A stretch of 30,664 nucleotides of DNA, from positions 1 to 30,664 of IMG/VR virus record IMGVR_UViG_2802429251_000007; one strand, 5' to 3'. Shown here piece after piece: positions 5,509 through 5,968 of this stretch. Each line of letters starts with the position of its first letter. The stretch's first letter is position 1. The position numbers and the translations under genes are program-made. This DNA is from a virus. Its lineage: Duplodnaviria > Heunggongvirae > Uroviricota > Caudoviricetes. Under the pieces are notes generated by a model that worked only from the letters and a program-made list of their open reading frames with translations, did not search any database and was not told the DNA's origin.

Positions 5509-5778
5509 GAGGAACAAGCCTTATTGTATTGCAGCACTGGCGTATTTTTTATTACGTGGGAGCAGGTTGTTTTGAAAAAGCGTTCTGTTCTCTGGCTATG
5601 ATTTGAGGCCGGGTGTAGCCTCAGTGCTTATTTTTTACGGCAGCAGAATGGTGCATTATCGGTGGAGATTTTGTATTTCCTGGCAGGGTCGGTAATGCAT
5701 CATTCCGATGTTGTAAGCATCGCTCAGAATAACGTTGAGATTAATCGCGTACTAAGCAAAACCTGGAAATACATCCTT

Positions 5779-5805
5779 AACCGCCGCACCAGGCGGTTTT
5801 TTTAT
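5779..5805 (+). terminator. intrinsic terminator
   Basis: CCGCC-GCACCA-GGCGG hairpin followed by TTTTTTT. Confidence 0.6.
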
Positions 5806-5925
5806 TCATTTTTTTCATGGCTCGCTACGGCGGGCCTTTTTCATATCCTCGCCACACCCGGCGCATATCACATCAAATAACGCCGCGCAAAAGGCATCTG
5901 CGGGTGCCTTTGACGGGGTGTTTTT

Positions 5926-5952
5926 ACGGGCCGCTGGTGGCCCTTTTTTATT
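5926..5952 (+). terminator. intrinsic terminator immediately upstream of holin RBS
   Basis: GGGCC-GCTGGT-GGCCC hairpin followed by TTTTTTATTT. Confidence 0.6.
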
Positions 5953-5968
5953 TACAGGAGAAAAACGT

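Follow-up and report, generated by a model that had tools for sequence, protein, structure and literature searches.

A conserved structured RNA behind a T4-like tRNA-Gly gene, in the spacer before the lysis genes of a lambdoid Escherichia prophage

The present analysis concerns a stretch of viral DNA of 30,664 nucleotides (positions 1 to 30,664 of the IMG/VR record IMGVR_UViG_2802429251_000007), which is called the window below. It represents the late region of a lambdoid Escherichia prophage, the nearest relatives of which are prophages of enterotoxigenic Escherichia coli (ETEC) strains, such as E24377A. A non-coding spacer of 460 nt separates a tRNA-Gly(UCC) gene from the first holin gene, and the question raised by this locus is what so long a stretch contains immediately in front of the lysis genes. 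A preliminary description of the window regarded the spacer as an array of terminators. Terminators are present, but the dominant conserved feature of the spacer is a structured RNA of 185 nt linked to the tRNA-Gly gene, and it is not a terminator. This RNA is undescribed, unannotated and well supported, and it moves as a unit with the T4-like tRNA-Gly. It is rather probable that the tRNAs are co-transcribed with this structured non-coding RNA and that the stacked terminators behind it insulate the lysis genes.

The structured RNA and its linkage to tRNA-Gly(UCC)

In a first alignment with nine relatives, the best-conserved stretch of the spacer was found at positions 5533-5717. It comprises a four-way junction, a run of uridines and a long hairpin (Table 1). 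The junction is closed by a helix of 7 bp, P1 (AGCACUG/CAGUGCU), which encloses three hairpins, P2 to P4, and is directly followed by the U-run. When folded on their own, 51 of the 52 unique junction variants form the closed three-hairpin junction, compared with about 4% of dinucleotide shuffles (149/3800). The junction occurs as type A (the window) and type B (UMNF18 and copy 2 of SerU-LTIIb), which share one topology with mostly different sequences of P2-P4; the same topology was found in all 13 divergent variants examined first, which belong to both types. RNAalifold recovers P1, P2 and P4 with compensatory changes, and in STEC719 a U-A pair of P1 is replaced by C-G. The U-run may act as a terminator tail or as a site for RNase E or Hfq.

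The long hairpin consists of a lower stem of ~28 bp, a conserved asymmetric 3' bulge, UGGCAGGG, and a tip of 6 bp. In the hairpin alignment A2 (28 variants), 34 pairs were obtained with 98.1% of the cells paired, a value reached by none of 500 shuffles, and slid controls gave 35-55%; 18 of these pairs vary on one side through G-U, and three vary on both sides. The full-element alignment A3 (27 diverse sequences, RNAalifold) contains 49 pairs with 96.6% of the cells paired, compared with 30-55% in slid controls. Two-sided changes were seen in 18 pairs (shuffles: 9.9±1.7), a number that none of 500 shuffles reached. The tip stem covaries in four loci retrieved without the tip sequence (L115-L118; the L-numbers are labels of the compared loci and relatives), where it reads GGAGAU/AUUUCC, GGGCU/AGCCC or AGGUU/AAUCU, while the bulge stays YUGGCRGGG. 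The fold of the whole spacer has a z-score of -5.05.

The pairing is strand-specific. In the alignment, 252 G-U cells stand against 22 A-C cells; a pairing rate of 95.1% results for the + strand, and one of 79.1% would result for the - strand. The covariance model of the element (R1) gives 80-205 bits for sense copies and 20-49 bits for antisense copies. The structured RNA lies on the + strand, in the sense of late transcription. Covariation beyond the shuffled and slid controls and strand asymmetry, which together mark a conserved structured RNA, are both found in this set of related sequences. Past the hairpin, the linker is kept among relatives of the short type (defined below), including the divergent L115 and L117.

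The apical motif of the hairpin lies 138-165 nt past a phage tRNA-Gly(UCC) in 105 of 114 occurrences, and this spacing does not depend on whether a Thr, Lys, Arg or CAT-anticodon tRNA precedes the tRNA-Gly. The element accompanies differently annotated Q proteins, and the genes downstream of it vary as well, including P27-type holins, lambda-S/EssD-type holins, TerB morons and other open reading frames (ORFs). The element is followed by terminator T2 in 112 of the 113 loci; the stem of this terminator hardly varies, its loop does, and U7-8 come next. Two types can be told apart by the distance from the element to T2, a short one of 40-80 nt (46 loci, including the window) and a long one of 140-160 nt (66 loci). 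Of 5426 complete E. coli genomes, 390 (~7%) carry the element, among them E. coli W, ATCC 8739 and reference strains of ETEC; it also occurs in E. ruysiae and in 104 IMG/VR contigs. The scan of genome contigs that gave E. ruysiae used the exact apical pattern and says little about the spread outside Escherichia. The tRNA-Gly(UCC) is 86.7% identical to the tRNA-Gly of T4, and the tRNAs found with it (Thr, Ile-like CAT, Arg, Lys) partly coincide with those of T4, which suggests that tRNA cassettes are exchanged between virulent and temperate coliphages. The prophage tRNA-Gly is presumably unlike the host glyT sequence.

In a search of Rfam 15 at gathering and permissive thresholds, only the tRNAs were recovered around the element in the window and its relatives, and no family was found for the structured RNA. 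The permissive matches were at chance level (miRNA precursors, sroB, CyaR, Trp leader), including those of the linker to sroB (23 bits) and CyaR (20 bits). A literature search for the apical sequence found no paper. A switch in which the hairpin tip (5672-5683) would pair with 5762-5773 before T2 through a 12-nt complementarity was rejected as a conserved feature, since L115 and L117 do not keep the complementarity: their tip is altered, but their motif upstream of T2 is not. A search for a partner of the conserved bulge elsewhere in the window gave chance-level matches only. A boxA-like CGCUCAGAA past the hairpin is not kept in relatives.

The preliminary description saw no convincing ORF in the spacer, and this is borne out by the ORF listing, by Pfam and by the relatives. 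Neither the 72-aa ORF at 5662-5880 nor the 86- and 96-aa "hypothetical proteins" of relatives have a Pfam match. All three extend across T2 and T3; in the window, a 1-nt change in the T-run removes their start, and the long-type relatives do not have them. The 86- and 96-aa ORFs, annotated by PGAP in E24377A and RM10740 (WP_000904532.1 and WP_001578250.1 in RefSeq; L001 4279-4539 and L007 1611-1901), span the RNA hairpin and terminators and are probably annotation artefacts. A 15-codon ORF at 5648-5695 is kept in several relatives, but UMNF18 has an in-frame stop in it, and it was rejected. Neither in-frame conservation among relatives nor a family match, as expected of a protein-coding gene, was found.

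Table 1. Features of the late region of the window (positions of the window; energies in kcal/mol)
Feature	Position	Strand	Remarks
Q antiterminator gene	2834-3385		DUF1133, 350 bits; Phage_antitermQ, 27 bits (cut-off 26)
P1/Gifsy-type immunity RNAs	a1b1 3405-3457; isrK 3418-3494; C4 3522-3606		Rfam
IS1	about 3690-4457
ORF6N gene, 5'-truncated	4509-4991		Pfam profile positions 17-86 only
Candidate late promoter pR'	5000-5028	+	-35 TTGCAT 5000-5005, 17-nt spacer, -10 TTCAAT 5023-5028; hexamers read from sequence
tR'-like terminator	5084-5118 (also given as 5084-5109)	+	10-bp stem with 6 G-C pairs, then UUUUGUUGUUUUU; -15.9, z -3.5
Possible tRNA-operon promoter	5264-5291	+	TTGCGA-16-TATCAT, 9/12 consensus; behind A+T-rich block 5120-5250
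tRNA-Thr(UGU)	5355-5430	+	ARAGORN; Rfam tRNA, 67.7 bits
tRNA-Gly(UCC), T4-like	5434-5508	+	ARAGORN; Rfam tRNA, 65.6 bits
Non-coding spacer, 460 nt	5509-5968		From tRNA-Gly end (5508) to holin ATG (5969)
Module 1	5509-5805		tRNA-Gly(UCC) trailer: four-way junction, U-run, 84-nt hairpin, linker, T2
Four-way junction	5533-5628	+	P1 5533-5539/5622-5628; P2 5540-5557; P3 5558-5592; P4 5594-5620
U-run UAUUUUUU	5629-5636	+	Directly after P1; in all variants; last three U (5634-5636) are first pairs of long hairpin
Long hairpin, 84 nt, ~32 bp	5634-5717	+	Apical stem 5664-5669/5675-5680; loop 5670-5674; 3' bulge 5681-5688
Linker before T2	5718-5778	+	Mostly unpaired conserved stretch CUAAGCAAAACCUGGAAAUACAUCCUUA (about 5751-5778)
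Terminator T2	5779-5805 (hairpin 5779-5798, then U7)	+	AACCGCC-loop-GGCGGUU; -12.4, z -4.1
Module 2	5806-5870	+	T3 hairpin, then small hairpin and leader
Terminator T3	Hairpin 5819-5836, then U5	+	-14.5, z -4.3
Module junction	5871-5875		Site of TerB-DUF3927 moron (678 bp) in relatives; absent from the window
Module 3	5876-5968		T4 and T5 tandem terminators, holin ribosome-binding site
Terminator T4	5879-5925	+	42-nt hairpin 5879-5922, or stem 5881-5920 and tail UUUUU 5921-5925; -26.9, z -3.6
Terminator T5	5928-5949 (hairpin 5928-5943, then U6)	+	GGGCC-loop-GGCCC; -10.8
Holin ribosome-binding site and start	AGGAG 5956-5960; ATG 5969-5971	+	Read from sequence
First holin gene	5969-6361		Phage_holin_8, 1e-22
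Second holin gene	6348-6626		Phage_holin_3_7
Endolysin ORF	6623-7006		Homologous position in relatives annotated as M15 family metallopeptidase

Terminators and the mosaic build of the spacer

The preliminary claim that the spacer contains several terminators was confirmed by a consensus scan, which found six terminator-like sites in it, five of them on the + strand, compared with 1.0±1.0 in 50 shuffles. This six-fold enrichment is confined: the 19-kb structural-gene region has no excess (25 vs 18.9±4.2). An intrinsic terminator was defined by a G+C-rich stem of 5-14 bp, a loop of 3-8 nt and an immediate U-tract on the transcribed strand; T2, T3, T5 and the tR'-like terminator have all these features, and T4 has them with an extended 42-nt hairpin and U5. 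By folding predictions, the spacer holds four to five real transcription terminators. The folding check that the preliminary description had proposed gave energies from -10.8 to -26.9 kcal/mol for T2-T5, and the two strong terminators that it placed at 5779-5805 and 5926-5952 correspond to T2 and T5. Its weaker candidates fared less evenly. Those at 5815-5845 and 5892-5912 are terminators, but not weak ones: the former is T3 and the latter is the tip of the long T4 hairpin. The candidate at 5600-5635 is not a terminator in its own right: its stem (5603-5624) is arm P4 of the conserved junction, and the U-run begins 6 nt past this stem, after the closing helix P1, to which it belongs. T5 ends 6 nt ahead of the Shine-Dalgarno sequence of the holin gene. 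Such a stack of terminators is known biology, is expected in Q-controlled phages and adds little in itself.

By sequence comparison, the spacer is a mosaic of three mobile non-coding modules and not one terminator array. In a BLAST search of the spacer against the 5426 complete E. coli genomes and phages, the alignments break recurrently at about 5509+5, +113, +206, +290-303, +362-368 and +448-460. Positions 5809-5870, which contain T3, match more than 1000 genomes alone, and in one O157-type prophage (L009) this piece starts 4 nt past the last tRNA gene (argO) and precedes the TerB-DUF3927 gene pair. The A30 locus (L006) matches the window up to 5870 (L006 1833) and resumes at 5876 (L006 2512, the DUF3927 stop codon), so that 678 bp with TerB-DUF3927 (L006 1834-2511), present in many relatives, are missing from the window exactly between T3 and T4. 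In A30, STEC719 and others, the third module comes right behind the stop codon of DUF3927; it is also found upstream of the holin gene in the Stx2e phage P27. The T4-T5 block is kept in 83 instances (35 variants), behind the DUF3927 gene or the T3 module; it precedes three different holin types, and its T4 stem shows wobble or compensatory changes among the instances, e.g., in L026. Since the modules have separate distributions, the density of terminators is largely the sum of the terminators that each module brings, and this mosaic assembly explains their number better than a purpose-built array.

Morons are independent promoter-gene-terminator cassettes lying between late genes (Hendrix and colleagues). 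The spacer resembles this model in that each of its sub-segments has its own distribution and terminator and that TerB-DUF3927 is present or absent between T3 and T4, but the cassettes left in the window are non-coding, and only terminators and leaders remain of them. In P27, the interval from the tRNA genes to the holin gene is filled, ahead of the T4-T5 block, by the stx2e genes; SerU-LTIIb has its LT-IIb toxin genes downstream of the endolysin gene instead.

Late transcription and rival explanations

In relatives, the region corresponding to 4999-5354 is the intergenic region between Q and the tRNA genes and directly abuts Q, and the candidate pR' and the tR'-like terminator are for this reason placed at about 5000-5109. 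Window positions 4999-5354 are 96% identical to a segment of strain 401651 that starts inside the stop codon of a DUF1133-type Q gene, and they also align with Q-proximal regions of RM10740 and 683R6; their first 120 nt adjoin DUF1133 Q genes in more than 1800 genomes. The hexamers at 5000-5028 would act as the late promoter, and the tR'-like terminator lies about 55 nt past them. In the window, a block at 3386-4998 (immunity RNAs, IS1, ORF6N) sits between Q and this region; it is therefore an insertion upstream of pR' and no obstacle on the late transcript. The preliminary description had counted a tR'-like terminator and IS1 on the late path; IS1 and the isrK terminator do not lie on it. The C-terminus of Q differs from those of the relatives mentioned, which suggests a recombination joint inside the 3' end of the Q gene. 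The path predicted from pR' leads over tR', possibly P1 and its U-run, and then T2, T3, T4 and T5. The dependence on antitermination proposed earlier is retained in the sense that about five intrinsic terminators precede the holin gene, so that lysis expression should need Q; the count given for it came partly from wrong elements. The map of the late transcription unit in this prophage is corrected in these respects.

The features of a Q-dependent unit seen here are the Q gene, just above the cut-off of Phage_antitermQ, and the promoter-like hexamers with a terminator at 4999-5118. As in the late operons of lambda, phage 21 and Shiga toxin (Stx) phages, a DUF1133/Phage_antitermQ Q gene is present, a promoter and a terminator stand beside Q in relatives, and tRNA genes and then the lysis cassette follow downstream, with several intrinsic terminators en route. 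The window differs in that Q is parted from pR' by the 1.6-kb c4/isrK-IS1-ORF6N block and that the terminators are packed in one 190-nt stretch right before the holin gene. A terminator-rich, Q-dependent leader is ordinary lambdoid biology. The predicted short transcript from pR' to tR' (5030-5118, ~80 nt) is well folded (-39.2 kcal/mol, z -4.2), and its position is analogous to those of lambda 6S RNA and StxS, the short pR'-tR' RNA known from Stx phages (PMC7547250).

The sequence comparisons show where the modules meet, how and on which strand the RNA folds, its linkage to tRNA-Gly and the hairpins of the terminators; the following course of expression, processing and function is inferred for the locus. 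Without Q, polymerase starting at the tRNA-operon promoter or leaking through tR' would transcribe tRNA-Thr, tRNA-Gly and the structured RNA and would stop at T2, with T3, T4 and T5 as back-ups, so that the holin gene would be silent in the lysogen. Nucleases of tRNA processing would free the tRNAs, and the folded trailer would persist as a stable non-coding RNA. Alternatively, the trailer would be cut by RNase III in the long hairpin or by RNase E at the U-run and the A/U-rich linker into smaller RNAs; one of the products would be a 3' fragment with the conserved unpaired stretch and T2, which is the usual build of an Hfq-bound small RNA (sRNA). Upon induction, Q-modified polymerase from pR' (about 5000-5028) would cross tR' and T2-T5 into the lysis genes. 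Redundant insulation seems reasonable because a strong unit of stable RNA would lie 460 nt upstream of a lethal gene. The guess in the preliminary description that the region could encode small RNAs pointed in the right direction.

Several points weigh against this picture. The aligned sequences are close relatives (effective number 1.88), and shared ancestry inflates the covariation counts; most pair changes are one-sided G-U transitions. Most sequences were retrieved by the exact apical pattern, so the apical invariance is partly built in, and independent tests of it come only from L115-L118, L130, L137 and a few others. For P3, the only support comes from folds of single sequences, as MAFFT could not align this arm between types A and B. 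Natural deletion variants exist: in L080 (about 3197-3360), P4 is without its 3' half and P1 without its 3' strand, and L168 (6570-6705) has lost the apical half of the long hairpin. In an arbitrary sample of viral contigs with the tRNA-Gly, capped at 120, ~45% carry the element, and the rest have other trailers; since the same tRNA-Gly thus has other trailers in about half of the sample, the element is not needed for tRNA-Gly itself. The promoter scan gave no excess over shuffles around the candidate at 5264-5291, which makes this promoter a weak inference, and the tRNAs and the structured RNA may be made only from the late transcript.

The simplest rival is that the spacer only stops unmodified polymerase, that all conserved hairpins are terminators and that no RNA product matters. 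The six-fold enrichment of sites, the canonical structure and common orientation of T2-T5 and the U-run after P1 agree with it, but the best-conserved 185 nt are not a canonical terminator, and the 84-nt hairpin is without a U-tail; an unpaired bulge is held together with a structure maintained through compensatory changes, the three inner arms of the junction are kept in sequence-divergent types, and the modules have separate histories. This explanation is very unlikely. It is possible, though doubtful, that the element is a processing site acting in cis only. RNase III would then cut in the hairpin, and RNase E or RNase P at the junction and U-run; this would detach the tRNA precursor from the message downstream and determine where the lysis mRNA begins and how stable it is, and the RNA cut out would itself have no role. 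RNase III needs about 20 bp or more of near-continuous double-stranded RNA, and the predicted lower stem offers ~28 bp with single mismatches only; an A/U-rich single strand separates two stable domains, and the element directly follows the last tRNA in a polycistronic late transcript. However, the element is followed by T2 and by varied genes, including non-lysis morons, and is therefore not tied to one message, and the conserved bulge and a junction strand (CUGUUCU) suggest a specific recognition beyond generic double strand. An Hfq-type trans-acting sRNA would place the product in the 3' part (about 5718-5805), consisting of the unpaired stretch and T2, with the junction and hairpin as 5' precursor or stabiliser. 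In its favour, the unpaired stretch ahead of T2 is conserved in short-type relatives, long-type relatives carry an STnc100-like CGGGAGGCACCCG core between hairpin and T2 (21.7 bits in L003, sub-threshold), and L177 has a true STnc100 match (53 bits) behind the same tRNA-Gly, which there has another kind of trailer, ~260 nt ahead of the match. In relatives, this slot is taken by STnc100 and PasD, both of them validated sRNAs of prophages that are bound by Hfq (PMC8550237; bioRxiv 10.64898/2026.05.13.724894). Against it, the window reaches only 17.2 bits where the gathering threshold of STnc100 is 47 bits, BLAST found no similarity between the window and PasA or PasD2 of E2348/69, and the stronger conservation of the upstream 185 nt would be left unexplained; this reading, too, is possible but is held with reserve.

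Since the element stands just upstream of four terminators, it might modify polymerase and help it to cross T2-T5, like put of HK022, or else its cloverleaf-like junction with a 7-bp closing helix, beside phage tRNAs of kinds implicated in anti-defence (PMC10264068, for the concept), might serve in trans as a tRNA-like decoy against host nucleases. Both roles are highly improbable: phage-encoded Q already explains read-through, the element co-occurs with different Q types, the almost constant presence of T2 behind it would be odd for an antiterminator, and no tRNA model matches the junction. It is scarcely credible that the locus is an element acting at the DNA level (an inverted repeat of recombination or transposition) or a small protein gene. 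The 27-nt inverted-repeat arms and the ORFs described above (those annotated by PGAP and the 15-codon one) speak for it, but the asymmetry between G-U and A-C cells indicates selection on one RNA strand, and the longer ORFs belong to no family, run across two terminators, are without their start in the window and do not occur in long-type relatives; the 15-codon ORF is interrupted in UMNF18. A bolder reading, considered unlikely, is that the 185-nt RNA is the first known case of a new class of phage RNAs that are linked to tRNAs and have an activity of their own, the trailer types C and D/E (see below) being alternatives in one "RNA cargo slot" of temperate enterobacterial phages. Under that reading, the RNA may be shaped like a tRNA and act as a decoy or sponge for host defence nucleases that target tRNAs, or it may bind a ribonuclease or the polymerase.

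Related RNAs, alternative trailers and further observations

The nearest parallel to the structured RNA is found in T4, where the species 1 and 2 RNAs (rnaC and rnaD), small stable RNAs "of yet unknown functions", come right after the last tRNA (PMC9697503). The position after the last tRNA, the size of ~100-140 nt per domain, the multi-branch fold closed by a terminal helix and the adjoining T4-like tRNA-Gly are alike. Homology was rejected, as a search of the T4 tRNA region (L119) with covariance model R1 gave no match up to E = 1; in addition, T4 rnaC has a tRNA-like T-arm, GGUUCGAAUCC, absent from the junction here, and the carriers of the element are temperate lambdoid prophages. The likeness to rnaC and rnaD is positional and architectural only. 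The element offers a second example, found in temperate phages and open to genetics, of the 50-year-old puzzle of the tRNA-linked stable RNAs of T4. The junction itself is not a tRNA: ARAGORN and the Rfam tRNA model match only 5355-5430 and 5434-5508, and the junction has arms of 4-5, 7-9 and 7-11 bp, loops of up to 19 nt and no GUUCGA.

STnc100 (RF02076) and PasD of enteropathogenic E. coli (EPEC) and Salmonella lie in the same slot, from the tRNAs or morons to the lysis genes, and likewise end in an intrinsic terminator. A member of STnc100 reaches at least 47 bits, the gathering threshold, and has a closing helix with the core GGGAGGCACCC; the window RNA was rejected as a member of STnc100/PasD, since its score was obtained at 5762-5848, which is essentially the terminator, and the core motif is absent from the window. 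The junction and long hairpin stand outside these families. Membership among the sRNAs PasA, PasC and PasD of EPEC E2348/69 was likewise rejected: PasD follows DUF3927 in E2348/69, but it has no similarity to the window, and blastn with word size 7 of 5300-6000 against NC_011601 739000-745500 gave nothing below E = 0.5 (coordinates of the Pas sRNAs from PMC8550237, table S6). The long-type relatives L003 (SerU-LTIIb; 1490-1600), L010, L004 and L118 have an extra domain of ~100 nt with the CGGGAGGCACCCG core, and this domain may be a diverged member of STnc100/PasD.

Among other phage RNAs, GOLLD and ROOL are large structured RNAs (500-800 nt) near prophage tRNAs, and both are in Rfam. They resemble the element in being phage-borne, near tRNA genes and conserved in structure, and differ in being far larger and unrelated; the element has no Rfam match. 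The architecture of the element, a junction and one long hairpin ~500 nt from pR', differs from that of HK022 put, which is taken here to be two adjacent stem-loops just past the promoter that give terminator resistance in cis.

The other trailers behind the same tRNA-Gly likewise seem to be structured, and they, too, are unannotated. In type C, a hairpin, AGUCUUUCAGUCUGCGAUGAUGGGAAAUCCCGGAGUGACUGAAAGAC, contains C/D-box-like UGAUGA...CUGA and is accompanied by a GUGGGUGGUUUGUUGG domain, and type D/E is represented by GACAGCCGGGAAAGACCGGCACC; such trailers were seen in the IMG/VR contigs L151 (5065-5330), L177 (1948-2210), L141 (4260-4420), L131 and others, and no type C or D/E trailer in these contigs reached an Rfam gathering score. 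L169 has a copy of the element (3688-3855, scoring 80 bits) 1.3 kb past tRNA-Gly, behind a truncated type-C trailer and an apparent inserted insertion sequence; different trailers can therefore be stacked. At the site of this RNA, prophages otherwise have toxin genes, morons or validated sRNAs, and these arrangements suggest that the trailer of the tRNA serves generally as a place for RNA cargo.

Elsewhere in the window, Rfam matches were obtained for sok, the antitoxin RNA of hok/sok (1166-1340, 108.6 bits), and for IS009 (28135-28333, 189 bits).

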